From assembly GCA_963602685.1 (NCBI GenBank), contig CAVCJG010000005.1, forward strand, positions 15,047-79,046: a stretch of 64,000 nucleotides of DNA, in the 5' to 3' direction. The translations under genes and the position numbers were made by a program. The DNA comes from Eggerthellaceae bacterium. Lineage in GTDB: Bacteria > Bacillota > Clostridia > Christensenellales > UBA1242. The notes below the pieces were generated by a model. The model ran no database searches, had not been told where the DNA came from, and saw nothing but the letters and a program-made list of their open reading frames with translations. This document shows positions 6,501-54,895 of the stretch, in pieces (the first letter of the stretch is position 1; the number at the start of each line of letters is the position of its first letter).

Positions 6501-9500
6501 AATGGATATGTAACATTATTTTTTATTATTTCAAAATTAACATTTTCTGGTAGGTCTGATGGGTTTATAAAATTAAAATTATTGTTTGTTGCATTTGGTT
6601 TAACTTTCAACATAAAGCGATAAATCAATCCCTCAATCGCCCCATTGGTATTTTTTTGAGTAATTTCAAAATAGGTCTCTACATCAGTATCTGAGATAAT
6701 ATCGTTGATTGTAAGGATATTTCCATTGATGGAATAAACTTTTTGTCCCTTCAATGTGCCAAATTCAACTGAAGTTTTATTTGTTTCAAAGTCAGTCGCT
6801 TGCAAACCTGTTAAATACTTGTCATCTCCAAGTGAAGTTAACATTTCACCATAAATGCTGTCTTTGTAAGTATATTGTTTTTCGCCATTATAATTTATTT
6901 TGCATCCGTTTTCGTTTTTGCTTCCTACGTACGCTTTATAAATTACGATTGCCTTGCTTGTTGTATCAATAGACTTAAAGTAATAAGTTGTTGTAACTTC
7001 GTCGGCGGTAATTGTAAATGTTTCTCCAACTGAAATTAGTTTACCATTATTTACGCCTTCGGCTTTAATTTCATTGTTTTTATTAACCGTGAATGAAACT
7101 TTTTTAAAAGTGAAAGTTCCACCACCGTTTTCGTCTGGAGTGTATGTTATATTGCCGTCTTTATTGTCTTTGCCCATTTCTTCAACGATGGTTAATTTTC
7201 CATCGTCCAAATAATATTCAAAAGGTGCAACAAGATAATATGTTTTGCCACCTTCAACTTCAGCAAACAAATTGTTAGGGTTGTTGAGAGTGTCGTTTAA
7301 GTCGGTGTTGTTTGTGTTTGAATCGCCAGGTGTTTCATATGGATAAGATGCGATTTTGCTTCCTACACGTGACCAAACAAATGGAATTTGCCATGTCGCA
7401 AGATCATTGCCTAGATTCCCATCTGTGAAATCCCTAAAGAAGACTTTGAAATATACTGATTTTCCAGCAATCAACGCATCATTAGATTTGCTTGCAAAGT
7501 TGATTGATTGCCCCGCGATATTGTATGCGTTTTGAACTCCAGTAAGTTTTATTCCGATTTTTTTGTCGTCAGAACCATTGGAATTGCTTGATATAGAATG
7601 TAGATAATAATCACCTAAATTTTTTTGGAAGGTTGCACTATTTCTGTCCACCCAAACTGCATCATAGCCGTTATATTTTATTGTTGTTCCAAGCATAAAT
7701 AAATCTGAGAAGTCTGCAAGTTCTACTATGCTAAATCCAAGTGAAAGATTTGCTGAGCATGTAGCAACAACTTTTTCTAATTCTTTTATCGTTGCTTTTG
7801 CTGAAATAGTGATAGTTTTGTATGTTTCACCATAGCCTAAATCTAAAGGCAAAACTGAAACAAACTTTTTATTTGCATCAAGTTGATAGTATTTTGAAAT
7901 TTCGTATGATGAAATTCCACCAATCTCCGTAGCGTCAACTGCTTGAACAGCGCCATATCCAAGCGTTGTTCTTTTTAGCTCGAAATATTGTGTGAAGTCA
8001 TTATCTAACTTTATGTTTTTAACGCTTAAATCACGGCTGCTTTTTTGAACGAGCTTAAAGTTTGGACAAACAACAAGTGTTAAGTCTTTATAATAAGCAT
8101 ATTTATTGCCATCTATAACATAAAGAGTGAATGTGTATTGTGTAGGTTCGTAAACATCATTAAATGTCAACTTACCGTTTTCGAATTTTCCGACTTTATC
8201 GCTATTGACTACGAGTTCCTCATTCTTATATTTATCTATTTGATCCCATTTTACATATGTAAAATTTCCTTCTTCATCTGCTTCGCCAAGTCTAACTTTA
8301 ACGTATTCATTAAGGTCGATTGGGAAAGCGGCATAAACGTAGATTGCTGTTGGATCAAAGTCTTCGTCTTTGTCTTCGTCGGCAACGCCTTTCTGGTCTT
8401 TTGTTTCGCCGTTTACTTTATATTCGCCATATTTGATGTTTGCAAAGTCCACTTTTTCTTCTGTTGCGTATTTTTTAATTGTGATGTCAAAAGTAAAGTT
8501 TAATGTCGAATCGCTGTTTGTTGCGACAAATGAAATTGTAACGTCATCGGCAAAGTTTTCTTTGATTTTAAAACTTTTAATTTCAGTCGTTGTTTCGCCA
8601 GTGGTGAACTCAATCATACCATTTAACGCGGCGCTTGATTCATCTTTAAGTCTAATTGTGTAATAATTTGGATCGTATTTTCCAGAAGTTACAAAAACAT
8701 CAAGAAGTCCGTTTCGGGCGTCGTCATCTTCGCTTGTGTTTTTAAGGACGACCTCGTTACCCGCTTTGCCATCCATTGAGTATTTTGGATTTGCAAGGTT
8801 TTGTTCTGCGCCTTCAACTTCAATTCTTGTAACGCCAGTTGTTGAAACATTTAATGTAAAACTATATGACACGCTGCCCGCTGTGATTGTAACAATAATT
8901 CCGTTTTCAGTGCCTGTGCCGAATGTGATTTTCTTTTCGCTGTTGTCGGCAATTACGATTTTTGAGTTTGAAGATGAAATTGTGTAATCATATTTAAAAG
9001 CACGATCATAAACATCAGTGATCACTGTTTTATCTTCGCCGTTTATAAGTTCAGCAAACTGATTGATTGCGTTTTCGCCAGTGTATTCTACATCTGTTCC
9101 CTTAATTGAAATTGTGCTTGTGCCGTCGCTTGTCATGGTTTGAGTAACATCAAATGTTTGGCCTTTCAATGCTTCGTTTGCAATGCCTTTTGGACGTTGG
9201 TTGTAAACAACTACTCCCGCTTGCTTGTCGCCATCGGCAGGTTGAGCCGTCCAATCTAAAATTGCAACTGAGTTGTTGTATTCAACACGAACAAAGAATT
9301 TTGTTCCCAATTCTTCTGCGATGTTTACATCAGCCTTTGTTTTTACTGGGACAGTAACAACGTCGCCTGCAAGAGTCATTTCGCCAAATTCAAAAACGTC
9401 GCTCCCAACTCTGTCTTTGCCCGCAATGTCTTTGCTTGCATAGAAAGTGATTTTGCTTTTTTCGTTTTCAAAGATAGCAGCGTCGCCGGCTTCTTTTAAT

Positions 9501-11464
9501 GTAAGCTTTAATTCAAACGCGTTTTCAACGCCTGTTGGAATTGCATAATAACTGCGGTCTTCTACAAAGTATTTTTCGTCGATTGAGTCGATTACAACTG
9601 ACTTGAATCCTTGCAGAGTCTTTTTAACAGAAACTAAAACTTTTGAAGAGATTTTTTCAAGAGTGTAAGTTCCTGATGCGTTCATGATTGGATTGCCATA
9701 TGCGTCAGTTCTAACTGTTGCAAAAACAAGGTTGAAGTCAATCGCTTCTTTTGCTACAAGTTGATAACTGTTGAGCAATGGGTAAAGTTTTTTGGTTTCT
9801 CCGCTTGAAATTGTATACATTCCTGCGCCGTCATCAGTAACAGCAACATAGTCGCCCATGTCCTTTCCGTCAGGGAAAGCGGCGTCATAATAAGCAAAGA
9901 AAACTCTCTTTGTATAAACGTTTTCTGATGGAACATGAGAGATTGTTCTTAAATCGTCTTTATATTCTGAAGAAAGAACGTTTCCGTTTTTGTCATAAAC
10001 GATTGTCATTGAAATGCCAGATTCAACAATACCGGTTTCCCAATAAATGTCAGATTCAACATTTTCTTTTGATTGCATATAAACTTTGCGTTCGGTGGTG
10101 TCGTCAAAGATGTGTGTTACACCGTTTTCGTCTTGAACAAAAAGTTTAATTTCGGCAACGATTTCATATTCGCCGTTGGTTGAGATTTCCCAATATGCAT
10201 GGTTAAGATTTTTAACGTTTGAATTGATTAAAACATATTCTTTTTCGTCGTAAATCTTGATTGCTCCGCCCTTAACTGTAACAAAGTTTGAAAGGTCGTT
10301 AATAATATCAAGTCCTGAGTTTGTATCTTTGATTGAGATAATTCTAAGTCCGACATTTTTAATCATAGATGAAAGGTCGTTGTCGTGAATGTCGCGAATT
10401 CTGATAGAAATTTCTTCATCGGCAAGAGTGCTCACTCCGGCTGAAACTCTAAACAACTTGTTGACAGTAAATTCAAATGGAGAACCTGCTGTTGGTTTGA
10501 TTGAGAAGCTTCCGACATTGGCTTCAACAACGTCAACTTTGATTTGTGTTTTGATTGCTTTTTCAGCGGTTGACAAAACGCGGATTGCTTCGGTGTAAAG
10601 TGGAAGGCCAGCAAGTTCAGAATTATTAGCGTAAAATTCTGCTTGGTCTTCGGCTGAAGCGAATGTGTAGGCATTGATGATGTTGCCAGCTGAAGTTTCG
10701 TTCCCGGCTACGAAATAGATGTCGCCGTCATTGTAGTTTAATGTGATACCTTCGTTTGAAGAAGCTGATTCATAATAAATGTCTTTTTGTCTTTTTGTGG
10801 TGACTGCTTCGTTTTTATCGTCGCTGAACATATATTGGCTTGCTTCTGGATAGAAGGTTGGTTTTAAAATAAAGTTTGTGCCTTGTGAAATTTTGTTTGT
10901 GTCATCAGCTGTAAGTTTGTCGCCTGTTGTAGAGTTGTATGCTTCAAGTTTGATTTCCCCTACTGGCACGTCAACAGCAACTTGGATTTGCGATGAAGTG
11001 AGCGTGTTGTTTTGAGTTGTAACGATAAGGTGTGAGATTCCGCCTTTGTTTAACATATGTTCGTTGCTGTTAGAATCGAGATATGCTTCTTGAACAAGTT
11101 GAACATAAAATTCGTCATTGATTTTTACTTTTTGTGGGACGATGATAATTCCGTCTGAAATTTTTCCGTCTTCGGTTGTGGTTACTGAAACGCCTGATGC
11201 AAAGCTTAATGTGATTTCGTCTTGAGTAACGTTTTCGGTTGGAGTTGTGATTTTAAGTCTAAATTGCTTTACGGCTTCATATTGGGTCGTGGATAAATTA
11301 TAAATGCCATCAACGTCATTTATTTCGATTGACTCTGGAGGTGTAACTTCAGGTTTGAATCCTGTTTTAAGATAGACAGCCAAAAATGAGCCGCCGATAG
11401 CCAGCACAATAACTGAGACTAAGATTAAAATGAGTTGCCAAGTTTTAGGCGCTTTAAGTTTCAT
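596..11464 (-). CDS. Giant (3,622 aa) membrane-anchored extracellular protein, probably many divergent beta-sandwich/Ig-like modules; function unknown
   Basis: Single uninterrupted 10.9-kb ORF. GGAG sits 9 nt upstream of the ATG. N-terminal signal-anchor KTWQLILILVSVIVLAIGGSFLAVYL. The rest is hydrophilic, T/N/K/Y/V/D-rich, almost Cys-free and beta-strand-like. No LPXTG or other sorting motif at the C-terminus. Confidence 0.9.
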   Translation of the reverse strand: MKLKAPKTWQLILILVSVIVLAIGGSFLAVYLKTGFKPEVTPPESIEINDVDGIYNLSTTQYEAVKQFRLKITTPTENVTQDEITLSFASGVSVTTTEDGKISDGIIIVPQKVKINDEFYVQLVQEAYLDSNSNEHMLNKGGISHLIVTTQNNTLTSSQIQVAVDVPVGEIKLEAYNSTTGDKLTADDTNKISQGTNFILKPTFYPEASQYMFSDDKNEAVTTKRQKDIYYESASSNEGITLNYNDGDIYFVAGNETSAGNIINAYTFASAEDQAEFYANNSELAGLPLYTEAIRVLSTAEKAIKTQIKVDVVEANVGSFSIKPTAGSPFEFTVNKLFRVSAGVSTLADEEISIRIRDIHDNDLSSMIKNVGLRIISIKDTNSGLDIINDLSNFVTVKGGAIKIYDEKEYVLINSNVKNLNHAYWEISTNGEYEIVAEIKLFVQDENGVTHIFDDTTERKVYMQSKENVESDIYWETGIVESGISMTIVYDKNGNVLSSEYKDDLRTISHVPSENVYTKRVFFAYYDAAFPDGKDMGDYVAVTDDGAGMYTISSGETKKLYPLLNSYQLVAKEAIDFNLVFATVRTDAYGNPIMNASGTYTLEKISSKVLVSVKKTLQGFKSVVIDSIDEKYFVEDRSYYAIPTGVENAFELKLTLKEAGDAAIFENEKSKITFYASKDIAGKDRVGSDVFEFGEMTLAGDVVTVPVKTKADVNIAEELGTKFFVRVEYNNSVAILDWTAQPADGDKQAGVVVYNQRPKGIANEALKGQTFDVTQTMTSDGTSTISIKGTDVEYTGENAINQFAELINGEDKTVITDVYDRAFKYDYTISSSNSKIVIADNSEKKITFGTGTENGIIVTITAGSVSYSFTLNVSTTGVTRIEVEGAEQNLANPKYSMDGKAGNEVVLKNTSEDDDARNGLLDVFVTSGKYDPNYYTIRLKDESSAALNGMIEFTTGETTTEIKSFKIKENFADDVTISFVATNSDSTLNFTFDITIKKYATEEKVDFANIKYGEYKVNGETKDQKGVADEDKDEDFDPTAIYVYAAFPIDLNEYVKVRLGEADEEGNFTYVKWDQIDKYKNEELVVNSDKVGKFENGKLTFNDVYEPTQYTFTLYVIDGNKYAYYKDLTLVVCPNFKLVQKSSRDLSVKNIKLDNDFTQYFELKRTTLGYGAVQAVDATEIGGISSYEISKYYQLDANKKFVSVLPLDLGYGETYKTITISAKATIKELEKVVATCSANLSLGFSIVELADFSDLFMLGTTIKYNGYDAVWVDRNSATFQKNLGDYYLHSISSNSNGSDDKKIGIKLTGVQNAYNIAGQSINFASKSNDALIAGKSVYFKVFFRDFTDGNLGNDLATWQIPFVWSRVGSKIASYPYETPGDSNTNNTDLNDTLNNPNNLFAEVEGGKTYYLVAPFEYYLDDGKLTIVEEMGKDNKDGNITYTPDENGGGTFTFKKVSFTVNKNNEIKAEGVNNGKLISVGETFTITADEVTTTYYFKSIDTTSKAIVIYKAYVGSKNENGCKINYNGEKQYTYKDSIYGEMLTSLGDDKYLTGLQATDFETNKTSVEFGTLKGQKVYSINGNILTINDIISDTDVETYFEITQKNTNGAIEGLIYRFMLKVKPNATNNNFNFINPSDLPENVNFEIIKNNVTYPFGGSAENLTVENNEDEPIKIDLKAKLGADTQNQDKHRIEDVIQRYGETIPTDISAKANLTVSQLLIDGKDYTKKGNDDKYYQTNEIFTVAIGIVEDSNGKQTELNVTFTNKANAKNVTVKLLREYRNVYGADFEYVFSINASSVEYVMAYNAGDGNFTVGTRDATWKLANTTDAQTVKATTKQRTDSGESNVDPNKVVTVLTHNLEKEKGYKVEYDYKAANPTLSIKLPEFRESEITRNVYFSVDGKVISTITLIIPATVNATQKNQTLTAGGKYAIGDLVKLTTKDAELDTIKTEGGDIDYVNLVDDGKSITIFNAIEDKTITLKLYYKYKYTVTTTNEAGEEITSQIKKTGYVIYTYEIAANIKPKQSLETQSIISGTKYTGITFTSLQQDAKVFSTTGFSLAWSAQDSGLFDTITMSGDGQITIKAKDVAITTSTTVTLTFTYKDLFTFNVSVPVTIYPAYRLKTNYPNPSQTENLTYESVISGAKIDSFLSSAAEFASANRIQAAAAKVNIANGGYDGGYADNYSALTGNASVKIIDIQNMKTVEYGEQTTTGTSVTYYALYANPNSTENSELTVTPEPTVKPETAIFKFTKGNETGVSYVILQVKYHGVSINYTVYVFDNVVSGYVNSTIHRNGEVETIYQDRIDTTDLFNKSRLLKLEVGASALVGAVYYPYVVEVDANGTYTPVTKQGTSEPLVLLQFQLKSEYVGRTIYVDSGVSALQLAANQTIVFFAKADADVTKDAVMTGVTFVRTAGRVEYRYATADGQSIDITNADMQTVQSGSAKTDANTEITTYQVGYRIGDSGTIKSQISYQVEMGLDIAVDRSFTPTDSSSTPTVIEIEAHKGEYYRLVEQAGIRHPSTGELITAKSLGDAELKYEVMDVSSGSSMYRIFDGYKQYQYQNSKFEDYLKLHDIAEQVGKNDSKKIYDYYLFGLGCAADGDYVLVKIIYQYKQNTPSEFYIVVKIVPDYEITLAGEKYEPVVENNSAYVTNKDKPYVFTPSVTDGKSKEMTLAGKDAGEQLISAIRTNWNSTNIAYSFAYVLTQQENSEYNTKANIDKLRLTEAKETINSKEKPYWTKNGNQYKPNIPTIKFAPAEVVFGVKQYFVEITDDYGYKIMFYFNLVPADDQTPTVYEAVSTLNFTEGDDFDVGLVYDAISINETKDDQKNVTKSAEIEYNKAPETDTISKIILQNIDAWGLTTNASEADVKSVLSGKYTSAPKFHDVTVTGVTFKYESDKGESAKHYDGPAASSTFRLGSGQDAVSHEYDETNCCLAGGANASITYKGVTYYSVAQEKNADKLKATITGKLTGTTAPYKWETKINGVDREFEVIKGGTDEAPIYKLKVNGVQHVSGAQLTPVKVDEKVYTTYTVKIDIQGTGANTKPTSVSLEGVYEPYEQRNYYLGLDASEKETSVVTSSGTKNLATDALYWPGANSQYRTLSAGYYKVPYMDGWIYGTSDTTQVSILISLTYKKGVTNKEESCVVVYNANITKKAKFNSTAKVIVDGQKFELGKYITTDPKLCNLKPVGKDETANGTYYDDTLAVTIPAQGQVVLSINVSENDTWKNFVLTRNNTSTTSQRTDFISLSEVYGKTINPEGMGIEVSWAGPDGASVYYGIKNIGSNDKPVYQNKKVESPYGTIELNNKIYGYKLLKIHDGKEIKYKLVMIGEQVTVNEEPTIQWNMVDNYSGSKIVLDGSTYEVGLNDQGDLNLADNTGSYDKDKNEKPEQDLEINEIDHDILYIESAERIPSKTSVTDVYQYSITKSYIIKANGTYYQYKHNFTMTPKYAYFDNGLGQEVVKEIYKTKEDWEELKAVDKNNNYIGYTVKLEDWAKGNTDEKGQKYSDVTVASAALGKSTVEKDDTITTLMDIIKADTKTSALEFTIGKDGTSYTDATIDPIKGTITTGSHYELNKNQYILIRIWIKASGGPGGNFDGKEYGNANYKKLLGELRIYLTDSTKTSNP

Positions 11465-18149: not shown

Positions 18150-20048
18150 TCAAGTGATTAAAATTATTGTATCGCCTTTAGCGACCTTTGTCCCCGCAGG
18201 TGGAAGTTGCTTCAAAACAATTCCGCCTTCGCCGTCGGTTTCAAACGAAATTCCCAACTTTTTAAGTTCAATCGCCGCATCGGTCAAAGTTTTTCCGACC
18301 AAATCAGGCATTTCTACAAGTTCGATGACGGTTGTTTCGTTTTGTTTTTTAATGTCGAGATATTTAAAAATGCCGCTGAAAATTTCTTTGCCGTAAGGCG
18401 CTGCAACAACGCTTCCGTAATACGCGCCCGCACTCGGTTCGTCAACCATAACCATCACAAGATAGTCCGGATCGGTGGCTGGGAAAGTTCCGATAAAACT
18501 TGAAATATACTTGCCCTGCGCGATGTGCCCGGTGGCGTCGTATTTTTGCGCCGTTCCCGTTTTGCCGCCGACGTCATAACCTTCCACAAAAGTATAGTCG
18601 CCGTGCTTGTTGGTGGCCTTTGACAGCAGTTTGCAAACCCTTTGCGAAGTCGACTCTGAAACAACTTGGCGCTTAACTTCGCGGCTGGAATGATAAATTT
18701 GGTTTCCAAAAACATCGACCGCCTCGCTGACAATAGTCGGTGTGGTCAATTTTCCGCCGTTAACTATGCCGTCAACAGCGGTGAGCAGTTGAATAGGCGT
18801 AACCGCTACCGCGTGTCCGAACCCCATACGCGCAAGGTCGACGCGCTTGACGATAGATTTGTCCATCAAAATGCCGCCGACTTCGCCCGCCAGCGAAATC
18901 CCCGTCTTTTGCCCGAGCCCAAACTTTTGCATATAATCATAAAACTTATCAACGCCCAGTCGCATAGCCAATTCCATGAACACGCAGTTGCACGAATTGG
19001 CAAGCCCCTCTTGCAAATCCTGCGACCCATGTCCGATACTGCGCCAGCATCTAATCTTAACCCCGTCAATAACGCGCGACCCGCCGCAATAAAATCTGTC
19101 GTTTTCGCTGACGACGCCCTCTTCAAGCGCAGCGGCAAGCGTGAGAATTTTAAAAGTCGAACCAGGTTCGTAAACATCGGTGATCGCCTTAATTTTTGAC
19201 TCATCAAACAGTTTAGCAATGTCGTCACGCGGAATATTGTTAAGGTCAAAACTAGGCTTAGTCGAAATCGCCAAAACTTCGGCCGTCTTGGCATTCATCA
19301 CCAGCCCGGTCGCATTTTTCGCTTTTTGTTCGGTCATGATTTTTTCAAGCGCCTGCTCTAAAATCAGTTGAATTTTCGAATCGACGGTCAGCCTAATGTC
19401 CGCGCCCTTTGTCGCCGGAACATAATATCTCAGCGCACCGCCGATTTCCTTCCCCTGCAAGTCACTTTGCGTAAAAGAATAACCATCCGCGCCCTTCAAA
19501 AGCGCATCGAACTGCGCCTCAATCCCGCTTTGCCCCGCGTTGTCAACGCTGACAAACCCAAGCGTCTGCGAAAGCAAATTTCCGTAAGTGTAATAACGCC
19601 CGACGCTCTCAGCAAGATAAACGCCGCTGAATTTTTGTCGATAAATCTCTTCGGCGACATCGGCAGAAACCTGCAACTTGATAAGCACTTCAGAGATATT
19701 TTTTTTGATGACCTTTTCAAAAACTTTCAAATAGTTGAGCGATAAAATGTCCGACAAAAACTTACTGACTTGTTCGGGATTTTCAATCTCGCGCCCGCGC
19801 ACATAAACGTTGTAGGTTGTATAACTCGTCGCTAGGCGCGACCCCGTTGCATCATAAATATCGCCGCGCGGAGCAGTGATTGCCAGATCTCTTGTCCACT
19901 GCGAAGTCGCTTTGAGTTGCAAATCTTTTCCGTTTATGATTTGCACGACAAAAAGGCGCACAGACAGCGCACAAAAAAGAAAGGTCACCAGCAGCGAAAG
20001 CGCGAGTAACCTTTTTTTGAACGAATGAAGAGAGAAAGGGTTGGTCAA
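18150..20048 (-). CDS. Class B penicillin-binding protein (PBP2B/FtsI/SpoVD-like transpeptidase) with one C-terminal PASTA domain
   Basis: N-terminal TM. SxxK (GSTFK), SxN (NSCN) and KTG (GKTGTAQ) motifs. C-terminal VEMPDLVGKTLTDAAIELKKLGISFETDGEGGIVLKQLPPAGTKVAKGDTIILI. Confidence 0.9.
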   Translation of the reverse strand: MTNPFSLHSFKKRLLALSLLVTFLFCALSVRLFVVQIINGKDLQLKATSQWTRDLAITAPRGDIYDATGSRLATSYTTYNVYVRGREIENPEQVSKFLSDILSLNYLKVFEKVIKKNISEVLIKLQVSADVAEEIYRQKFSGVYLAESVGRYYTYGNLLSQTLGFVSVDNAGQSGIEAQFDALLKGADGYSFTQSDLQGKEIGGALRYYVPATKGADIRLTVDSKIQLILEQALEKIMTEQKAKNATGLVMNAKTAEVLAISTKPSFDLNNIPRDDIAKLFDESKIKAITDVYEPGSTFKILTLAAALEEGVVSENDRFYCGGSRVIDGVKIRCWRSIGHGSQDLQEGLANSCNCVFMELAMRLGVDKFYDYMQKFGLGQKTGISLAGEVGGILMDKSIVKRVDLARMGFGHAVAVTPIQLLTAVDGIVNGGKLTTPTIVSEAVDVFGNQIYHSSREVKRQVVSESTSQRVCKLLSKATNKHGDYTFVEGYDVGGKTGTAQKYDATGHIAQGKYISSFIGTFPATDPDYLVMVMVDEPSAGAYYGSVVAAPYGKEIFSGIFKYLDIKKQNETTVIELVEMPDLVGKTLTDAAIELKKLGISFETDGEGGIVLKQLPPAGTKVAKGDTIILIT

Positions 20049-20051: not shown

Positions 20052-20585
20052 TTAACCTCCAAAGAACCCCGATAAATACTTGCAAAATCTATCAAACCAG
20101 TTTGACTGTTTTTTCATCTGGTCGGGACGCATAAGGTCGGTAGGAAAAGTTTCGATTAGTTCGGCAGTCTTGTTTCCCGAGTCGACGGAGTAGATTTTTT
20201 GCATGAGTTTTGCTGCGTTGATCGAGTAAGAAGATTGCGCAGCGTTGTAAGCGTTGATTGAATCTGCCAGTTCGACACCGGTAAACGCGCCGAGCCCGAC
20301 AACCAGTCCAATCAAAACAGCAGCGATGACGATTTTGAAAACGGATTTTTTAGGTTTAGGCTGTTTTTTCTCGACTGATTTTTCGAGTTTAAGAATGCGT
20401 TTTTTCTTTTCGGGAGTCACGTCAGGCAGCAAATCATAGTTCGGGGTTTCGATAACAATGTTTTCAGTTTTAGGAGACTCAACTTGAGCCTTGATAGAAG
20501 AAAGGTTGATTTTTTTACTCGCTTTTTCGAGTTTTTGTTCAACCTCAACATCTTTTTCAAGCAAAAGAATGTCTCTCTCTTTCAT
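20052..20585 (-). CDS. Bitopic membrane protein immediately upstream of the PBP (possible divisome component; FtsL position)
   Basis: Start placed at M44 of the track ORF (MKERDILLLEKD...), where AAGGAG lies 12 nt upstream. K/E-rich cytoplasmic part, one TM (IVIAAVLIGLVVGLGAFTGV), about 60-aa outside tail. 3-nt gap to the PBP start. Confidence 0.6.
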   Translation of the reverse strand: MKERDILLLEKDVEVEQKLEKASKKINLSSIKAQVESPKTENIVIETPNYDLLPDVTPEKKKRILKLEKSVEKKQPKPKKSVFKIVIAAVLIGLVVGLGAFTGVELADSINAYNAAQSSYSINAAKLMQKIYSVDSGNKTAELIETFPTDLMRPDQMKKQSNWFDRFCKYLSGFFGG

Positions 20586-20727
20586 ATGTATTCGAAACTC
20601 CTTTTCGATATGACGATTGTCAACGGAATGGGCAACGCAATAGCCGTTGCATGATGGCTGGCAAAGCCAGCATTTAATGCAGCATTTTATATGCTTGTCT
20701 TGCTTATTTATCAATAAAATGTGCGAT

Positions 20728-20905
20728 GCTAAACTTTTTCGGGGAAGGGCTTTGCCCGGCGAAAACAGTTTAGCGCGCCCTGATGCAACGCCGAAAGCGC
20801 CCGGGGCGCGTCAAGTTGCGGGAAAGGGGCACGTGGGGAAAACTGAATTTTAGCGGTTGCCCGCGCCTAGCGGGTGTGGCCGCGTTTAAAATTTGGTTGT
20901 CCCCG
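20728..20905. other. GC-rich, highly structured intergenic element (candidate ncRNA or cis-regulatory leader); family not recognised
   Basis: About 180 nt, clearly more GC-rich than its flanks. 13-bp helix 20728-20740 / 20761-20774 with one bulge. Helix 20775-20780 / 20804-20809 enclosing a small hairpin. Helix 20853-20856 / 20880-20883 around CCCGC / GCGGG (20860-20864 / 20870-20874). G-rich tract at 20818-20840. Confidence 0.45.
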
Positions 20906-20913
20906 CGAATGTC

Positions 20914-22953
20914 TTAGTGCATCCACGACGTATCTTCTTCTTCGTCTTCAACGAAGTTTGATATGCTTGTATAGAACGCATAGTTGGTTGTTGTGTCGTT
21001 TGGTCGCTTTGCAACGCTGTATGCTATTTCAAGATAACTGCAATCAAACTTGCTTTCATCCAAAACACCATACGCGTTGTATGATGAGCCTTCAAGAACT
21101 TTGTAATATCTTCTTGCATCGGTCAATCCCGAAATTGTAATCACACGTTGCTCTTTTGTTGTTTTAAGCGCGTCAGGTGTGTTGAACTTTCCGATTTTTA
21201 CAGGTTCGCCAAATGTGTATTGTTTTAGGGTTGGCTCAAACTCAAATTCAATCGTGCTTGTTCCCCCGACATCAACAGGGCCATCTTTAACACGAACCCT
21301 TTTTTGTATTTCATGAATTGGCGAGCCGTCACCTTTGTTCCAACGAATCGAAACAGTAATGTCCAAAAACTTTTCAGGGTCATAAATGTCGTCGCCGTCG
21401 TTGCCTGCGTCATATTTAATGTCAATCCAAATGTCAGTAACCGTTGTTTCGCGGCTTGGCACAATCACTGCACTTTGATATTCATATGGTTGTTTATTTT
21501 TAAATGGGTCACCACTTCCAAACTTTGAGAAGAAGGTTGTATATGGATAGTCGACAACTTCAGATGCAATGTATGCGTCGTCGATTTTTGTGTCAGTTGT
21601 TGGGTCGTCTTTATTTGCCTTTCCGATTGTTGTCAACTTTCCGCAATAGTCAACTATGGCAGTGACAACATCTTCGTAATAATAGTTTACTTGCTTTTTT
21701 ATGCCATCAACTGTATATTCTGACAATGCTTGTTCACCGATGACATTTTCGAGAATGTATTTTACAATGTCTTTTTTGTTTTTGGTTGTAAGACCAACGT
21801 AAGAGCCAAGACGATTGAATGTTGATTTAATGTCTTCAACAGCAACTTCGGCACTTGTCTTTCCGTTTACGCCAGCAGTTGCAGAGTAGCCGTCAATAGT
21901 GACAACCGGCGCACCGTTCTCACCCGTGTAAGTCACTTTCATATTTCTAGGAGTAATCCCCAGCACTATATTGTAAATAGCATATTCCAATGCACGGTTA
22001 TAGTCAGCGTTGTTTTTCGTTTGATTTCCAATAAATGTTTCTGAAAAAATCGATGGGCTAAATACTTTCCTATTATCATCGCCATTGTAATATGTTTGAA
22101 ATGTTTCAAAATCCAATTTTTTTTCATCGCTCGGCTCGAATTTTATAACCGGACGAGTTGATGTGCTCCCAGATTGATTTTGTCCGTATCTTAATATCCA
22201 TGGCAAATAATTCTCATTCGTGTGCAGTAAACTCCAATTCCAACCCCTTTGATAATCAGCCGCTATGTCGTAATACACAATAGTAGGAACGCCGTCAACA
22301 ACTTCGGCTTCTTCCAACTTTTCAGTTGTGTCTTTACTTTCTGCCTTTTTATAATAAGGTGTAACATTCACGATTTGATAACGCAAAGCATCATACCAAT
22401 AAAGATAACTATCTTTGTTGGCACTTTCAAAATCTTGTGCCAATTCATTCATTTTTTCATTGTTTGTATTTTGATATATTTCGTCAAAAATATTTGGATT
22501 GTTATAAGTAAAATTTCCATATACATAAAACAAGTATGTTAAAATGTCAGTCCCAAAATTGTAATAATATTCTCTGTTTGTTCCTTCTCCGCCATCTTTA
22601 TCAGTAACATTGCCATTAAAGTCGTATGACAAAGGCTTGCGGAGCACCTTAACATAGTCAACCGAAATTCCGCCGGTCATTTCTTCTTTCTTTTCTTCAT
22701 CATCGGTGTCTGGGTCAGAATCGTCGTCGTCATCGTCGTCATCATCGTCAGTTGCTGGCTTATGGTCTGGGTGAGTTGGCGGTGGATCTGACGTGCCAAT
22801 TTCGGTGTCTTGTTTTGGTGGAGTTGGTTTTAATCCGTCAAAAACACTGCATCCGACTGTGCAAGTAAAACAAAACACACTCATCAGCATTGCCAAGATT
22901 GCACGAGAAAAAAATGTTTTAATTTTTGTTTTCACACTTTTATGATATATCAT
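20914..22953 (-). CDS. Lipoprotein of unknown function (679 aa) with a poly-Asp linker
   Basis: Signal peptide ending in lipobox TVG-C, then a P/T/D-rich linker with D10 (ATDDDDDDDDDDSDPDTDDEE), then a large globular part. Confidence 0.8.
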   Translation of the reverse strand: MIYHKSVKTKIKTFFSRAILAMLMSVFCFTCTVGCSVFDGLKPTPPKQDTEIGTSDPPPTHPDHKPATDDDDDDDDDDSDPDTDDEEKKEEMTGGISVDYVKVLRKPLSYDFNGNVTDKDGGEGTNREYYYNFGTDILTYLFYVYGNFTYNNPNIFDEIYQNTNNEKMNELAQDFESANKDSYLYWYDALRYQIVNVTPYYKKAESKDTTEKLEEAEVVDGVPTIVYYDIAADYQRGWNWSLLHTNENYLPWILRYGQNQSGSTSTRPVIKFEPSDEKKLDFETFQTYYNGDDNRKVFSPSIFSETFIGNQTKNNADYNRALEYAIYNIVLGITPRNMKVTYTGENGAPVVTIDGYSATAGVNGKTSAEVAVEDIKSTFNRLGSYVGLTTKNKKDIVKYILENVIGEQALSEYTVDGIKKQVNYYYEDVVTAIVDYCGKLTTIGKANKDDPTTDTKIDDAYIASEVVDYPYTTFFSKFGSGDPFKNKQPYEYQSAVIVPSRETTVTDIWIDIKYDAGNDGDDIYDPEKFLDITVSIRWNKGDGSPIHEIQKRVRVKDGPVDVGGTSTIEFEFEPTLKQYTFGEPVKIGKFNTPDALKTTKEQRVITISGLTDARRYYKVLEGSSYNAYGVLDESKFDCSYLEIAYSVAKRPNDTTTNYAFYTSISNFVEDEEEDTSWMH

Positions 22954-22988
22954 TTTGCATAAAAAAACAAATTATTTTGCCTTTCAAC

Positions 22989-23020
22989 AAAAAAACACTC
23001 TTTTAAAAGAGTGCTTTTTT
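22989..23020. terminator. Bidirectional hairpin terminator between the two lipoprotein genes
   Basis: CACTCTT / AAGAGTG stem (22996-23002 / 23007-23013) flanked by an A-run and a T-run. Confidence 0.55.
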
Positions 23021-23024
23021 ATTT

Positions 23025-24809
23025 TTATCTTGAAATTGAATCTTCTTCTTTATTTCTAAAGTATGCTGATAAAGCAGCCGCTGCTATATCGGTATGTTCG
23101 CCTTCATATGAGATTCTCAATTTCGATGTTGTGCTTGCTGTGTTGCCTTCTTGTCCAGCAATTACTGGATTGTTTACAACTTCTGTGCTTTTTGACACAA
23201 TTTTATATTGTGAATTTTCTTCACCTGTTAAGAATGAGTTGTAAAGACTTTCGTTTGTCGATGTTGTATAATATGGAACATATATTGTATCAGTTTTAAT
23301 TGTAATTGTTCCATTTTCTTTGTAAACAACTGTTGCGTCAAATTGTGAATAGTAACCGGTATTGAACATTTTCTTAGAATCAATTAATCTGGATCCCATT
23401 GCTCCAACGTATGTAGCAATTACTTCTTTGTCTGAGCAAAGTTTTGTACCAAAAGCTTCTTTATCAACTGAATCTGTTGTGTCAACCAATATGTTTTTAC
23501 CTGAAAATACATTTGAATTCAATCCGTTAAAAACTTCTTTTTCACTTTCTAAGTTCGCCTTAAATGAAGCTAAGTCTGTTTTTAAAGTAGTTTCTTCTAC
23601 GCTTCCAACTTCAATTTTTTCTGACATGAACTTATTTTCAACATATTGTTTAAAGTCTGCCGACATTTCTTCGTATCTACTTATATACTGAGATATTATA
23701 TCATAATTTGAACCTTTGTATGGCGTTTTTTCGAGTCTGGTTCTTCCTAGGCTGTCAACTGTCTCCGCATATAAAACAAATGTCCCATTGTCTACTGAAT
23801 ACATTATTAATTTCGCATTCGTTACATAATCATAAATATTCGAAAGATTATTTTCAAGTAATTTTGTTGGAGAAGCAAGAGTATAACCATTGCCAAAGAT
23901 TTCGTTGTAAACTGTATCAAAATCTACATATTCAATAATTGGTTTTTCTTCAAGGGCTGGGGCTTCGTATTTTTTACTTGGGTCGATTGTGCGTGTTGTT
24001 TGGCTGAATCCCTTTCCGCTTGCAATGACATCTTCGATTTCCTTATTGGTCATATTTTCTTTTCCGTCAACCGAAAAAACTATGTCATAAAGCTTTCCGT
24101 CTTTGCCTACTAATGCAACAACCGTTCCGTCTTCACGAACTTCGCTGCTTACTGCAAAGTCATATTTGCCTGTTAATGATTCTGGAAGTTTGATGCTAGA
24201 AACATTTGCAAAGATTTCGTTTACTCTTTCAGGTGTGATTTCACTGATTTGGTCAATTTCGTTTAAGATTGTTTGAACTGCTTGTGTGAATTTTGCATCA
24301 ACTGTGTCTTTTTGGTCTTTTTCAACTTTTTGGTCAGCAGTGTAGCCTGATTTTTCATAAACTACTGTTGCTGCATCTTTGCCACGAAGTTCAGCAAGCA
24401 AGGCGTCTTCATAATAAATAGTTACAGCCTTTTCGCCATTGATTATTGCAACAACTGTTGCAGCGTCTGCCTTTTTAGAATCAAAGTGCAAGTCGGTGAT
24501 TTTAACATCTTTTGTTGAAACATTAAATTGATTTGCAACGTTTTGTTCGATTTCATTGAAAATTGCATTTGTCAAGTTAAGATTTTTGTATGCAGTGTTT
24601 TCTTCAAGAATTTGTGATGCAGTGTATGATGTGTCAGGGCCTGGTGTAGGTGTTGGAGTAGGTGTAGGTGTTGGTGTTTGTCCTGGCTTGTTGCACGCTG
24701 AAAATGAAAAAGCAGTTGTTGCAATAGCAGCGACAGTTACTGCTTTAACAAATCCTTGTTTTGTAAAAACGTTTCTAAATTTTTGAACTAGTTTATCCCA
24801 TAATTTCAT
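23025..24809 (-). CDS. Lipoprotein of unknown function (594 aa from the RBS-supported start) with a (TP)6 linker
   Basis: AGGAGGG lies 8 nt upstream of the ATG at 24809 (MKLWDKLVQKF...). Lipobox FSA-C followed by NKPGQTPTPTPTPTPTPGPD. Confidence 0.8.
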   Translation of the reverse strand: MKLWDKLVQKFRNVFTKQGFVKAVTVAAIATTAFSFSACNKPGQTPTPTPTPTPTPGPDTSYTASQILEENTAYKNLNLTNAIFNEIEQNVANQFNVSTKDVKITDLHFDSKKADAATVVAIINGEKAVTIYYEDALLAELRGKDAATVVYEKSGYTADQKVEKDQKDTVDAKFTQAVQTILNEIDQISEITPERVNEIFANVSSIKLPESLTGKYDFAVSSEVREDGTVVALVGKDGKLYDIVFSVDGKENMTNKEIEDVIASGKGFSQTTRTIDPSKKYEAPALEEKPIIEYVDFDTVYNEIFGNGYTLASPTKLLENNLSNIYDYVTNAKLIMYSVDNGTFVLYAETVDSLGRTRLEKTPYKGSNYDIISQYISRYEEMSADFKQYVENKFMSEKIEVGSVEETTLKTDLASFKANLESEKEVFNGLNSNVFSGKNILVDTTDSVDKEAFGTKLCSDKEVIATYVGAMGSRLIDSKKMFNTGYYSQFDATVVYKENGTITIKTDTIYVPYYTTSTNESLYNSFLTGEENSQYKIVSKSTEVVNNPVIAGQEGNTASTTSKLRISYEGEHTDIAAAALSAYFRNKEEDSISR

Positions 24810-24916
24810 TAGAGATTCCCTCCTATTGTTATTAAATTCTAGCACACTTTTAAGTGAATTTCAATAGTTTATTGAAAAAATTGTTGTAAAAAACGCGGTG
24901 TTTAGATTGTTTTTGT

Positions 24917-25852
24917 CTAAAATCTTTCAAAAACACGCAATTTTGCCGAGTGCGAGCGGTCGTTGCGCTGCAATTCTTCGGCGCTGGCGGTGATTGGCTT
25001 TTTGTTTATCAACTTGCCTTTTGCCTTGTGGTGGCAGATGCAGACTGGTGTTTTTGGTGGGCAGATGCAGTCTGTGACGGCGTCTTTTAGCACATTTTTT
25101 ATGATGCGGTCTTCAAGGCTGTGAAAACTTATCACAGCAAGGCGGCCACCTGGGGCGAGCAGGTCGACAAAGTCTTCAACTGCTTGGCTTAAAATGTCAA
25201 GTTCGCCGTTCACTTCAATTCGTATTGCCTGAAAGGTCTTTTTGCTGACGCCACCCTTCCCGTAAATTATCTTTTTAGGAAACGCGCTTTCGATTATCTC
25301 TTTAAGTTGCAATGTTGTTTCAATCGGAGCGGTTTGTCGGGCTTTGACGATTGCCGCTGCGATTTTTGGAGCGAAACTTTCTTCGCCATACTTAAAAATG
25401 ATGTCGCGAAGTTGTGTTTGCGAATAGCCGTTGACAACGTCGTAGGCGCTTTTTGTTTGGTTGCGGTTCATGCGCATGTCGAGTGCGCCGTCGTGGAGAA
25501 AACTAAAACCACGCTCGGCGGTGTCGATTTGATAACTGCTTACGCCAAGGTCGGCCAAAATTCCGTCAACCTTGGTTATGCCAGCGCGGAGCAAGGTGGA
25601 TTTTGCGTCTTTAAAGTTTTCGTTGAAAAACGTAACGCATGAAAAAGGCGAAAGCCGCCTTTTGCTTGCTTCAATCGCGTCGCTGTCTTGGTCAAAGCAG
25701 ATTAGTCTGCCGCCCTTGCCTAGTCGCTTCGCAATTTCGCTGCTGTGGCCTCCGCCCCCGCACGTCATATCAACATACACTCCGTCTGGGCGTATGTTTA
25801 ATGCGTCGATGCATTCGTGCAATAATACTGGTATGTGTTGAAATTCTGTCAA
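24917..25852 (-). CDS. rsmH: 16S rRNA (cytosine1402-N4)-methyltransferase
   Basis: FQHIPVLLHECIDALNIRPDGVYVDMTCGGGGHS is typical RsmH/MraW. TTG start with GGAGA RBS; the TTG overlaps the TGA stop of the upstream gene (TTGA). Confidence 0.9.
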   Translation of the reverse strand: MTEFQHIPVLLHECIDALNIRPDGVYVDMTCGGGGHSSEIAKRLGKGGRLICFDQDSDAIEASKRRLSPFSCVTFFNENFKDAKSTLLRAGITKVDGILADLGVSSYQIDTAERGFSFLHDGALDMRMNRNQTKSAYDVVNGYSQTQLRDIIFKYGEESFAPKIAAAIVKARQTAPIETTLQLKEIIESAFPKKIIYGKGGVSKKTFQAIRIEVNGELDILSQAVEDFVDLLAPGGRLAVISFHSLEDRIIKNVLKDAVTDCICPPKTPVCICHHKAKGKLINKKPITASAEELQRNDRSHSAKLRVFERF

Positions 25853-28704
25853 ACTGTTTCTCCAATAAGTGTTTTGAATTGTGCAATGATGTCGCGATCT
25901 ATTTCGCTGTCCGCTTCAAGTTCGGCTATCTTTGCATCAAAGTATGTCTTTTGTTCGGTTGTGAGCGATGCGTCAACTTCAAGTGAGTTTGCAAGCGCAA
26001 GTATCTCTTTCGCGCTTTCTTGGTTGGCTTTTACTGCGCTCATGAGCGCGTCAACTGACGCCGTGTCTTTGTTGCCGTCGATTGCAACGTTTTTAAACGC
26101 TTCGGCAAATGCGTTGGCTTGTTTTGTCATGTTGATAAACTTAAACATGTCGTTAAAGTTGATTTCGTAGATGTTTGCCGCTTTGAATACGTCAAGGAAG
26201 GTGATGTTGAATTCGCTTTCCGCTTTTGCTATCATTGCGTTGAACATTGATTTTGTCACGCCCGCTGTTGCCTTGCCTTGCAGTTCGATGCGGTATGCGT
26301 TTTGTTTCATTTGTTCAAGAAGGTTGCCAAGCAAGATTTCGTCAATGTCTTCAAGGTTTGTCATTGTCGCGCTGGCGTTGTAAATCTTAACAAATGTTTT
26401 TATGATTGTTGTAAATTCTGATGCTTGGCTGTCTTCGCCCGTAAATGACGCTGGGTTAAGCAACATTGAAACTGCGCCGTCGCCGGTCACGTCTTTGATT
26501 GTGCTTACGACAATGCCAGCGAGTTGGTCGCGAAGCGGTTGCAAACTCTTTGCTGTCAGCACTGGTGGCATAACTTTGTCGAGCGTTGCGTCATCAAGTT
26601 TTTTAACAACTTCTTTCATGTCGCCGTCTTCGGTCAACAAATAGTCAAGCATGGTTTGTTTGGTCTCTTCGTCAAAATATTTGCTTTCGAGTTCGGTTAT
26701 CACAACTGTGAGTTGTGGAAGGTCGCTTGCCCAGTTTGCATATGATGCTGCCCAGTCGTTTTCAACTTCTAAAAGTGAGAAGTCAACCACGCCGGTTGTT
26801 TTGCTGCCGTCTATGATTGGTGTGAATATTTTGTCTTGAAGCGCTGTCACTTTGTAAAGTGGAAGCAGAACGTCGCTCATGAATGTTGAATATGCGGTGT
26901 CTGTTTTTTCACTTACAAGTCTTTGCGCAAACTTTTTGAGTATGCTGTTGAAGTTTACTTCGCCGTGCATGTCGTCGTAGATGTCAAGCGATATGAGTTT
27001 TTCAATCGATGGTGACATAAACTCAAACACGCCTTTGTAGGTTTCAATTGACTCGCCTTTCACGTCTTTTAAGTCGGCAAGTCCAAATTTGTTTAACACT
27101 CTTGGCATGAGTTTGTTGCCGTCGGTGTCGGACATGAACTCTAAGTTGTCGATGCAGTCAATCATGTTTCCAAATCTAGAAAGGATTTGTGGAACGTCGT
27201 TTTTAAGTTTTAATATCGTCATAAAGTCGCTTGTGATGTCGCCAAGGGCTACGTCTTGCTTTTCAATCATGCCGTTGATTTTGCCAACTTCGACGATTGT
27301 GTTTTTAACTTTTGTTTTCAAGCCGTCCCAGTCGGTTATGTTTGTATTGGCATCGGCAAGGATGTTGCCCAGTTCTTCATCCGAAACTTTTGTGAACACT
27401 GTTTTAAGTGCTGGTGAAAGCGCGTCACGAACTACGTTTAAGTCAAACAAGTTGTTGACCGCATTTGTAAGAACTTCGTCATAATTGTCGACCAAAACTG
27501 TTATCGAACTGAGCGTGCTTTTTTTGCCGACAACTTCTTGCAAATATCCCGATTTGCCCGCGCCGCTGATTGTGTAATAAATTTTGTCAATGTCAGGTTT
27601 GAAATATTCGGCGTATTTGTCGTTTGCCGAGATTGCTACGCTGACGTTTTTGAGTATGCCTTCATACTCTTTTAAGTCTGGAATAATCTTTACTAAGGTT
27701 TCGTAGTTTGTGATTGATTCGCCGATAATGTTTAAAACTACACTGTTGTAAAGTGAATTGCTTGTAACCGACTCATACGTCTTGTCAAGTTTTTCCCAGT
27801 CAATGCTGTCAAGGTCTTCGGCGTTGATGATTGCTGAAATATCTGTGTAAAGTGTGTAATAGTTGTTAAGTTCGCTTCTGAATTTGATTCGCTCGCCGTT
27901 GATTTCAACTTTGGCTACTTCGTCAAACATAAAGTCGTCCATGCCCGCCACGCCGTTAAGCACTCCAAGCGCGCTTTTGTTGACGCCGTGAACAATGTTT
28001 TTCACAACTGGTGGAAGCGATTCTAAAAAGCCTTTGTTTTCTTCGTCGCTGCTTGTGTCTCCGCTTTCGCCCGTGCCCGCGCCTGCGTCTGTGCTTGCGC
28101 CGTCGTCTTCGCCAACGATTTCAACAGCGGCTGAAACTTCGGTTGTATGCGCAGGGATTATTTGATCTGCAAATTTAACAGCACTTGTCAGTGGCATAAA
28201 CATAACTAAAACAAGTGCAAACATTTTAAATGTGCTTATAAGTCCGCCGACCCAACGATTGCGTTTGAGCCCGAGTTCTTTTTCTTTCTTTTTTGATTTG
28301 AAAACAAGCGAAATAAGTTTGTAAACAATATAAACAATAAGACGTATAACAAGGTTGAGCACCAAGAACACAACGGCCGCCATCAAAACGACTGGAAGTT
28401 TTTCAAGCAACTGCATCGTGCTTGGAGAGTTGTCGATTAAATTGGCAACGTCTTCATTTTCTGAAAGCATATTGACAATGAAAGTTTGAAGCGATGTTGT
28501 TTCGCCATTTGCTGTCACTTGAATTCCTAAAATTGCGTTTGTTACAACAGGCGTAATAAGTGCCACGATAATAATTCCCGCAATGGTGATTCCCAGTTCA
28601 AGCGATGAGCGTTTAACGCCGCGAATAAAGCCCTCCAAAAAGCCGAGCCCTAGCAACACAAAAAACACTACATCGATAATTGCAATAATTGCGCCTGCTG
28701 ACAT
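25849..28704 (-). CDS. Large membrane protein (951 aa) with an N-terminal CvpA-like multi-TM domain and a long helical C-terminal extension; sits in the mraZ position
   Basis: The N-terminus IIAIIDVVFFVLLGLGFLEGFIRGVKRSSLELGITIAGIIIVALI resembles the CvpA family. 4-5 TM helices in the first about 190 aa, an acidic G/S/T/D linker, then about 700 aa that appear helix-rich (inferred from composition). Confidence 0.75.
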   Translation of the reverse strand: MSAGAIIAIIDVVFFVLLGLGFLEGFIRGVKRSSLELGITIAGIIIVALITPVVTNAILGIQVTANGETTSLQTFIVNMLSENEDVANLIDNSPSTMQLLEKLPVVLMAAVVFLVLNLVIRLIVYIVYKLISLVFKSKKKEKELGLKRNRWVGGLISTFKMFALVLVMFMPLTSAVKFADQIIPAHTTEVSAAVEIVGEDDGASTDAGAGTGESGDTSSDEENKGFLESLPPVVKNIVHGVNKSALGVLNGVAGMDDFMFDEVAKVEINGERIKFRSELNNYYTLYTDISAIINAEDLDSIDWEKLDKTYESVTSNSLYNSVVLNIIGESITNYETLVKIIPDLKEYEGILKNVSVAISANDKYAEYFKPDIDKIYYTISGAGKSGYLQEVVGKKSTLSSITVLVDNYDEVLTNAVNNLFDLNVVRDALSPALKTVFTKVSDEELGNILADANTNITDWDGLKTKVKNTIVEVGKINGMIEKQDVALGDITSDFMTILKLKNDVPQILSRFGNMIDCIDNLEFMSDTDGNKLMPRVLNKFGLADLKDVKGESIETYKGVFEFMSPSIEKLISLDIYDDMHGEVNFNSILKKFAQRLVSEKTDTAYSTFMSDVLLPLYKVTALQDKIFTPIIDGSKTTGVVDFSLLEVENDWAASYANWASDLPQLTVVITELESKYFDEETKQTMLDYLLTEDGDMKEVVKKLDDATLDKVMPPVLTAKSLQPLRDQLAGIVVSTIKDVTGDGAVSMLLNPASFTGEDSQASEFTTIIKTFVKIYNASATMTNLEDIDEILLGNLLEQMKQNAYRIELQGKATAGVTKSMFNAMIAKAESEFNITFLDVFKAANIYEINFNDMFKFINMTKQANAFAEAFKNVAIDGNKDTASVDALMSAVKANQESAKEILALANSLEVDASLTTEQKTYFDAKIAELEADSEIDRDIIAQFKTLIGETV

Positions 28705-48276: not shown

Positions 48277-48349
48277 TTTTACCTCTTTTGCTGTAATATT
48301 TAATTAAATATAACATAATTTTCAATAAAATGAAAGTTTTTAAATAAAA

Positions 48350-50895: not shown

Positions 50896-50896
50896 T

Positions 50897-52219: not shown

Positions 52220-52293
52220 GTAAGAAATAATATCACACCCTCTGTTTTTTTTCAACAAAAAAAGGTGTTTTATTCACACCTTTTTGTTTCGAA

Positions 52294-53094: not shown

Positions 53095-53121
53095 TTTGTT
53101 TTCCTCCTTAGAAGCATTTTA

Positions 53122-54516: not shown

Positions 54517-54573
54517 GTGCGCCTCCTGTTTGATTTAAATAAATAGGCAAACAATGCCTAAATTAAAGTCAAG

Positions 54574-54885
54574 TTATTTTTCAAAGAGTTTTTTGATTTG
54601 ACGTTTTAACTCGTCAAATTCAAGTTCCGCTGCGCCTGGACGAACTAACAAAACATAATTTTTAAAGTTTTGTGGCAAGTTCTCGGTGCGGATGATTTCT
54701 CTTAGCCTTCTCTTTAATTTATTTCTTTTGTTTGCCTTTCCAATCTTTTTCGAAATAGAGTATCCTATTTTGTAAGATTCATATTTACTGTCGACTGAAA
54801 AAAGGGTAAATAGCGCAGTCGATGTCCGTTTACCTTTTTTATAAATGTATGAAAATTGACTCGCCTTTTTCAGTCTGTGATCCAT
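54574..54885 (-). CDS. rnpA: Ribonuclease P protein component
   Basis: Basic 103-aa protein with KANKRNKLKRRLREIIR. Immediately downstream of rpmH. Confidence 0.88.
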   Translation of the reverse strand: MDHRLKKASQFSYIYKKGKRTSTALFTLFSVDSKYESYKIGYSISKKIGKANKRNKLKRRLREIIRTENLPQNFKNYVLLVRPGAAELEFDELKRQIKKLFEK

Positions 54886-54895
54886 TTTTTAATCC

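Follow-up and report, generated by a model that had tools for sequence, protein, structure and literature searches.

Classical families of interspersed repeats in bacteria, such as REP, BOX, and MITE, comprise tens to hundreds of copies. CRISPR arrays consist of conserved repeats of 23–50 nt and unique spacers of similar size. Some regulatory RNAs also exist as families: LhrC1–LhrC5 are sibling sRNAs that provide a precedent for a multi-copy and tandem arrangement, and RsaE has its own entry in Rfam. BOX elements of Streptococcus pneumoniae have the organization boxA-boxB(n)-boxC and are present in about a hundred copies (Croucher et al. 2011, PMC3049150). In REP/BIME elements, one end of the palindrome bears an unpaired GTAG or CGTC tag (Di Nocera et al. 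2013, PMC3733652). These elements exceed approximately 100 copies per genome and have palindromes that alternate in orientation within a cluster (Nunvar et al. 2010, PMC2817692); REP, BIME, and REPIN elements are further treated by Bertels and Rainey 2011 (PMC3116915) and Ton-Hoang et al. 2012 (PMC3333891).

In this study we characterized a GC-rich island located among the division genes of a 64-kb stretch of DNA (designated as the window). The island is present in multiple copies, is built of modules, varies among strains, and has conserved base pairing. We give about an even chance to the interpretation that it is one unit of a low-copy, modular, and strain-variable structured repeat family of uncultured gut Clostridia. 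The repeat family is previously undescribed and unannotated. As a structured interspersed repeat family, it most resembles BOX/BIME-type mosaic repeats, while it lacks the end tag and alternating orientation of REP and the terminal repeats and target duplication of MITE.

The island resides in an intergenic gap (20586–20913) between the stop codon (20914–20916) of a gene for a 679-aa protein (20914–22953) and the ATG (20585–20583) of a gene for a 177-aa membrane protein at the FtsL position. Further genes in this region are rsmH (24917–25852), a gene for a 606-aa protein (23025–24845), and a gene for a PASTA-containing penicillin-binding protein (pbp, 18150–20048), and all of these genes, including those flanking the island, are on the minus strand. 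The 177-aa membrane protein gene is preceded by a Shine-Dalgarno sequence, AAGGAG (20603–20598, minus strand), and its start region (20583–20603) is identical in two relatives, L002 and L003. Judging from the position of the dnaA/dnaN gene set, approximately 35 kb separate the division cluster, whose genes run in the direction of replication, from the replication origin: the origin-region genes dnaA, dnaN, rnpA, yidC, jag, mnmE, mnmG, rsmG, parA, and parB are found at 46–58 kb of the window, with dnaA at 56.5–57.8 kb.

Several characteristics of the division cluster (20914–28704) are worth recording in their own right. The cluster has no mraZ, and the start of rsmH is overlapped by a 951-aa ORF without a Pfam domain. 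The 606-aa and 679-aa proteins, two large proteins that both lack a Pfam domain, are encoded between rsmH and the ftsL-like gene; in relatives an extra SpoU-methylase gene is inserted between the two large genes, and the window does not have it (L002, L003, L006, and L289 compared). The 679-aa gene evolves much faster than pbp, with DNA identities to L002 and L003 of 76–80% versus 92–94%.

The GC content of 20728–20908 is 0.597 versus a window mean of 0.369 (sd 0.061, 180-nt windows), which is the highest among the 180-nt stretches of the 64 kb. The folding energy of the gap is −111.6 kcal/mol for the minus strand and −135.9 kcal/mol for the plus strand, with z values against dinucleotide shuffles of −4.15 and −4.61, respectively, and on neither strand was any of 100 shuffles as low. 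These values agree with the original prediction of a GC-rich and densely paired island, and most of the helices it described are present: the 13-bp bulged helix capping GGGC-TTT-GCCC (20728–20774), the GCGCCC (20775–20780)/GGGCGC (20804–20809) helix, the GCGG (20853–20856)/CCGC (20880–20883) helix around CCCGC/GCGGG, and both proximal 6-bp hairpins (20632–20650 and 20657–20671). The exception is the end-pairing of CGGGGA (20740–20745) with TCCCCG (20900–20905), which is contradicted by L002, where these positions read CAGGAA and CCCACG. The partner of TCCCCG is instead CGTGGGGA (20832–20839), within a long foldback, and this pairing is kept in relatives.

Comparison of the copies defined a unit of roughly 200–226 nt with a constant order in the gene-sense direction: a boundary direct repeat (DR), a foldback enclosing a hairpin (H1), a pyrimidine-rich block, a middle domain, a long bulged hairpin, and an AT-rich tail. 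The 20-nt DR (20888–20908, minus strand) reads TCGCGGGGACAACCAAATTTT and begins 5 nt past the stop codon of the 679-aa gene. Its core, GACAACCAA, is unchanged in all nine compared sequences, and in L014 and L018, two loci of the closest reference genome, the DR opens every unit and also closes the arrays. The foldback (20832–20907), which is predicted on both strands, is formed by an inverted imperfect copy of the DR (20832–20852) that pairs with the DR region (20884–20907) around H1. On the plus strand it comprises 19 pairs, which are 97% paired across the compared sequences, and includes one G-U pair that is invariant in 11 of 11 sequences. H1 (20853–20883) has an outer stem, GCGG/CCGC, which is replaced in other lineages by GUGG/CCAC, GCCG/CGGC, or CGCUG/CAGCG, and an inner stem, CCCGC/GCGGG, which has the variants GGC/GCC and GGCAAC/GUUGCC. 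The pyrimidine-rich block (20821–20846, minus strand; GTTTTCC-CCACGTG-CCCCTTTCC) is the longest near-invariant stretch in both clades; the C-rich tract noted on the minus strand in the original prediction is thus real and lies in the most conserved block of the element. In the middle domain (20775–20820), all 11 sequences preserve a CGCC/GGCG helix, which is accompanied by flanking helices and shows G-U variants when read on the plus strand; the fold outside this helix is ambiguous. One distant relative, L290, has a 66-nt structured insertion in this domain (L290 4430–4495); further along the same contig (4570–4700), a second, partial copy of the 3' half of the long hairpin was observed, followed by other GC-rich hairpins.

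The long bulged hairpin (20728–20774) has an apical stem, GGGC/GCCC, with the variants AUGC/GCAU, AGGC/GCCU, and GAGC/GCUC, and its stems are wholly replaced but still paired in L008, L010, L017, and L290. The AT-rich tail (20686–20727, minus strand), which contains conserved TTGATAAAT followed by AGACAAG, is conserved among units and has a candidate promoter inside. Beyond the tail are three mini-hairpins (20611–20622, 20632–20650, and 20657–20671), the last two joined by a linker, CATGATGG, on the plus strand (20650–20657). Their module class is that of the mini-hairpin arrays of L014, L018, and L293–L300, and they are inverted relative to the large unit when compared with L018.

Syntenic loci, found via homologues of the 679-aa protein, revealed that the island is 93–98% identical in the close relatives L002, L003, and L019. 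The element is 93–94% identical to the L002 and L003 copies, which is above the identity of pbp third codon positions (79–84%) and of the remaining gap (74–86%) in the same comparison, indicating that the element is under purifying selection. In the distant relatives L008, L010, L017, and L290, whose flanking protein is only 42–47% identical, the element is still present, with invariant sequence blocks and rewritten stems. An alignment of 11 sequences contained 17 pairs with two-sided changes, while none of 500 shuffles reached this number, and approximately 95% of cells were paired versus 36–51% when the partners were slid by 1–3 columns. The two-sided changes and the excess over slid partners indicate that helix pairing is under selection. 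The compensatory changes also provide the covariation in homologous loci that the original prediction had proposed to look for.

Copies at other loci were searched for by an exact-pattern scan across 185,579 species genomes, using a pattern built from the pyrimidine-rich block. Four units were located in MAG UBA11517, the closest reference genome, and they occupy three loci: L019, the syntenic copy, 98% identical to the window; L014, with one unit between ftsY and a sigma-factor gene, anti-oriented to both; and L018, with two units in tandem, 226 nt apart, located 3' of a DUF4364 gene in the same orientation and ending at a bidirectional terminator. The same scan found two units in L017. Within the 64-kb window, pattern, repeat-finder, tandem-repeat-finder, and nhmmer searches found no second copy. 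Each unit begins with ATCGTGGGGACAACCAAATT, and the same 20-mer ends the array. Past the last unit is a run of 12–14-nt hairpins with CATGATRG separators at a spacing of 19–22 nt; these mini-hairpins fall into about five recurring types with almost perfect stems, and the arrays contain higher-order repeats.

The numbers of both module classes differ among strains. Eight places with an identical DUF4364 protein have 0, 1, or 2 units and from approximately 4 to approximately 12 mini-hairpins; the DR on one side and the last module on the other stay constant around these variable units and modules. The gap 3' of the DUF4364 gene is 529–828 nt long in six of the eight places, and the other two contigs stop within the gap. 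In the assembly collection, 651 indexed blocks contain the identical DUF4364 protein. At the division-gene site, L012, L013, and L292 lack the element and retain the operon, and in L289, where the operon is also retained, the element is reduced to two DRs and part of H1. Many short-read contigs break off inside the element, as expected where a sequence is common to several places or strains. Two observations were made on the array flanks. Beyond the mini-hairpin array of L014 (3570–3640) are three AT-rich direct repeats of approximately 19 nt resembling GYRGTTKRATTTTAAAAA, and L293, L294, L295, and L299 have an extra array segment (at about 3790–3900) containing GATATATATGCAAATGATAAGGACTGACAAGACAAG, which resembles the AT-rich tail of the large unit and carries TTGTCA-16-TATATA on the strand opposite the units.

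Nothing related to the element turned up in Rfam, plasmid and phage collections, or viral contigs. A search of Rfam 15 with the island gave no family at the gathering threshold or at E up to 10, consistent with the earlier statement that it could not be matched to RNase P, tmRNA, SRP, or 6S RNA, and the units and arrays of L008, L014, L017, L018, and L290 gave nothing at E up to 1. The tRNA/tmRNA scan found an unrelated tRNA-Ser only; BLAST against plasmids and phages gave no match; four patterns run against viral contigs gave chance matches or none; and a metagenome scan with a loose 18-base pattern gave only chance matches among the matches listed. A match in Bacteroidales, L015, was also attributed to chance because it has no nhmmer similarity.

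Like BOX elements, the family consists of modular intergenic repeats in a low-GC Firmicute with a variable count of a small internal module, a high degree of predicted secondary structure, probable co-transcription with neighbours, and no transposase of its own, and the layout of fixed end modules with a variable number of internal modules across loci and strains is also of the BOX type. Unlike BOX, with its hundred or so copies, units were seen here at three loci; the large unit is about 200 nt long, GC-rich, and subject to compensatory changes; the small modules are 12–14-nt hairpins with variable stems and a conserved 8-mer joint; and one copy is kept at the same site over deep lineages. 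The likeness lies in architecture, and homology to boxA, boxB, or boxC is unlikely in view of host phylogeny and sequences. The family shares with REP/BIME/REPIN elements of Proteobacteria the mosaic clusters of short palindromes, the location mostly just 3' of coding regions, and the polymorphism among strains; those elements are also thought to work as RNA hairpins, and two of their repeats in inverted order pair into a longer hairpin, just as the DR pairs here with its inverted copy. It differs from them in having array modules that all point in one direction, stems that differ between modules, few copies (four units at three loci in UBA11517 by the exact pattern and one locus in the 64-kb window), and a Clostridia host. 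The GTAG/CGTC tag is absent, the mini-hairpins being flanked by CATGATRG and the DR starting with ATCGTGGGG, and no RAYT (Y1 transposase) was found in the 47 scanned ORFs of the window, a set that leaves out the 3622-aa ORF. The arrangement is not that of a MITE either: the inverted DR copy is approximately 60 nt inside the unit and encloses H1 only, and the flanks are 20-nt direct repeats with no short duplication. A CRISPR array was rejected because the conserved part is 8 nt long and the variable part is a 12–14-nt palindrome of about five recurring types, while type III antitoxin repeats, integron attC sites, a retron, 6S RNA, and SRP RNA were ruled out on anatomy. A coding role was likewise rejected: a 68-aa ORF on the plus strand (20647–20853) is interrupted in other units, and the array spacing of 19–22 nt is not a multiple of three.

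Some features of the element do not sit easily with a repeat family. Copies are few, with three loci in UBA11517, the single genome surveyed in this respect. The copy at the division site persists where the flanking protein is only 42–47% identical and in this resembles a retained functional gene rather than a parasite, and no transposase, target-site duplication, or whole-unit terminal inverted repeat was found. One alternative with which the repeat pattern would be compatible is a non-autonomous mobile element that acts as single-stranded DNA, of REP/REPIN-RAYT type or derived from IS200/IS605, whose hairpins would be recognized by a transposase encoded elsewhere. The dispersal in either orientation, the presence/absence polymorphism, and the partial copies agree with it, as does selection on pairing with drift in stem sequence, and an asymmetry of G-T wobbles on one strand fits single-stranded DNA as well. 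We nevertheless consider it very unlikely: no transposase or Y1 transposase gene was found among the scanned ORFs of the 64-kb window or in the checked ORFs of L014 and L018; neither the GTAG/CGTC tag nor a short target duplication was found; only about three loci per genome bear units; and the strand favoured by the wobbles in the window would, from the position of dnaA, be the leading-strand template, which should rarely be single-stranded. More improbable still, to an extreme degree, is the original suggestion that a leader or riboswitch dedicated to the ftsL-like and pbp operon regulates it in cis. The element does occupy the gap that precedes these genes, and several lineages conserve it at this place. 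However, a riboswitch would keep a constant position and orientation beside one gene family, whereas the unit occurs in three gene contexts, including the position after the DUF4364 gene and the position before the sigma-factor gene, where its relative orientation is opposite. Moreover, the element is absent or truncated in L012, L013, L289, and L292 although the operon is kept, and the likely promoter of the operon is downstream of the island. The original prediction of an unclassified structured RNA candidate in the leader of the division genes therefore stands in part: the element is a conserved paired structure that is absent from Rfam and shows compensatory changes, but it is neither single-copy nor dedicated to this operon, several units at several loci making it the multi-copy genomic repeat that the prediction had set apart from a dedicated RNA.

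The remaining alternatives concern RNA genes on either strand. A family of structured non-coding RNA genes transcribed from the plus strand, antisense to the division genes, with approximately 185 nt each comprising the long bulged hairpin, the middle domain, and the terminal foldback, is rather unlikely. Helices found on both strands have G-U at 12 pair positions on the plus strand versus 3 on the minus strand, and the excess remains (10 versus 5) when the structure is predicted for the minus strand. In the close clade, 10–11 single-sided stem changes give a G-U pair on the plus strand versus 2 on the minus strand by our tally. Pairs that vary on one side only number 10 on the plus strand versus 1 on the minus strand; together with the invariant G-U pair of the foldback, these comparative counts uphold the original remark that G-U pairs favour the plus strand. 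The excess would also run against the established replication and transcription bias, which favours C-to-T changes on the other strand. The consensus energy is −55.0 kcal/mol for the plus strand versus −31.0 kcal/mol for the minus strand, and the plus-strand loops of H1 in L008, L010, and L017 are GAAA and GCGA (GNRA type), while those of the L014 and L018 mini-hairpins are GCA, GUA, GUUA, and GUCA. On the other hand, scans found no sigma-70-type promoter and no intrinsic terminator on this strand in any unit, stability normalized by shuffling is similar for both strands, the minus strand of the 66-nt insertion of L290 shows a GCA triloop and loops rich in purines, and the bias derives from few independent substitution events (p about 0.02–0.04). 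Wobble counts in the mini-hairpin stems (3 versus 1) are uninformative. We are rather doubtful that the unit of approximately 190 nt represents structured non-coding RNA of a new class, encoded most likely by the plus strand and present in few copies per genome, which together with the hypervariable mini-hairpin array would form an undescribed functional RNA locus; the array might then provide strain-variable specificity or act on an RNA-binding protein as a decoy or sponge. Should the unit be an RNA gene, covariation would clearly support a new RNA class, one found in abundant uncultured Clostridia of the human gut.

On the minus strand, the units might be sibling trans-acting sRNAs whose conserved unpaired C-rich motifs, UUUUCCCC and CCCCUUUCC, base-pair with ribosome-binding regions rich in purines, as those of LhrC, RsaE, and RoxS do, and which are produced from their own promoters or by 3' UTR processing. 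We regard this as unlikely. The units resemble LhrC1–LhrC5 and RsaE/RoxS in having several copies, some of them in tandem, and conserved gene-sense C-rich motifs between hairpins, a layout for which sibling sRNAs offer a precedent. No part of the element is better conserved than the C-rich block, most of which stays unpaired when the minus strand is folded, and in the window and L018 this strand must be transcribed together with the upstream gene. In addition, the second unit of L017, which lacks the DR, is preceded on the minus strand by TTGCAA-16-TATAAT (10 of 12 matches, with 0.2 sites expected by chance), and the conserved tail presents a −35-like or extended −10-like TTGATAAAT before the next unit. 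The promoter of L017, however, may just serve the ftsL-like and pbp genes; it is the only strong one that the promoter and terminator scans found before a unit, the sites elsewhere being weak or partial. Unlike LhrC1–LhrC5 and RsaE/RoxS, the unit is about twice as long, matches neither RsaE nor any other sRNA family in Rfam, has no clear promoter-terminator pair for each copy, varies from 0 to 2 in number among strains, and has a wobble pattern that favours the opposite strand, where the intermediates of stem changes are G-U pairs rather than the A-C mismatches of the minus strand. Except in L017, no canonical terminator follows the last hairpin. The originally proposed likeness to the C-rich motifs of RsaE/RoxS is accordingly a lead only, given the lack of an Rfam model match and the single-sided stem changes. 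With respect to the functional strand, wobble pairs and loops favour the plus strand, whereas co-transcription and promoter-like signals favour the gene-sense strand.

Under the preferred interpretation, a structured and strain-variable repeat family, the numbers of units and mini-hairpins probably change by recombination or slippage between repeats, while purifying selection keeps the helices of the unit paired. In the window, the unit begins immediately after the 679-aa gene with no terminator between, suggesting that the two are co-transcribed. The unit would then form a 3' extension of the 679-aa transcript and fold into large stem-loops, which may act as a structural module at the RNA level that protects or insulates the 3' end of the upstream transcript and from which a stable RNA fragment could be released. 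The preference of the wobble pairs for the non-messenger strand in the window argues against a role purely in the messenger sense. A candidate promoter read from the sequence of the AT-rich tail (minus strand) consists of −35 TTGATA (20714–20709), a 17-nt spacer, and −10 TATAAA (20691–20686); the promoter scan skips it because its rule demands T at the last −10 position. While the tail is conserved among units, TATAAA is confined to the syntenic copies. It is likely, to judge from these motifs, that the −35 box supplied by the tail of the unit and the locus-specific −10 form the promoter that drives the ftsL-like and pbp genes. Since this best promoter candidate lies downstream of the GC-rich island, the island is probably outside the leader of the ftsL-like/pbp transcript. 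The three mini-hairpins, in contrast, probably sit in the 5' leader of the ftsL-like gene and would be contained in this transcript.

These results dismiss the island as a riboswitch or leader of the division genes, a tempting but mistaken reading, and document a family of structured, strain-variable mosaic repeats in a common lineage of uncultured gut Clostridia. The loci that bear units and arrays break short-read assemblies and could act as strain markers. The units may also shape the expression of neighbouring genes, here possibly as part of the ftsL-like/pbp promoter.

Apart from the element, several features of the loci were observed. The minus strand of L014 (463–803) encodes an RNase P RNA of bacterial class A (284 bits); the nearby smc-ftsY locus has one unit. 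In the window, 596–11464 on the minus strand is a single ORF of 3622 aa. In the origin region (46563–59023), dnaA and dnaN share their strand with rnpA, yidC, jag, mnmE, mnmG, rsmG, parA, and parB, and recF is divergent from dnaA, with a dnaA-recF gap of just 129 nt. The same-strand layout of dnaA, dnaN, and rnpA in the window is unlike the Bacillus arrangement, in which dnaA-dnaN diverge from rpmH-rnpA.
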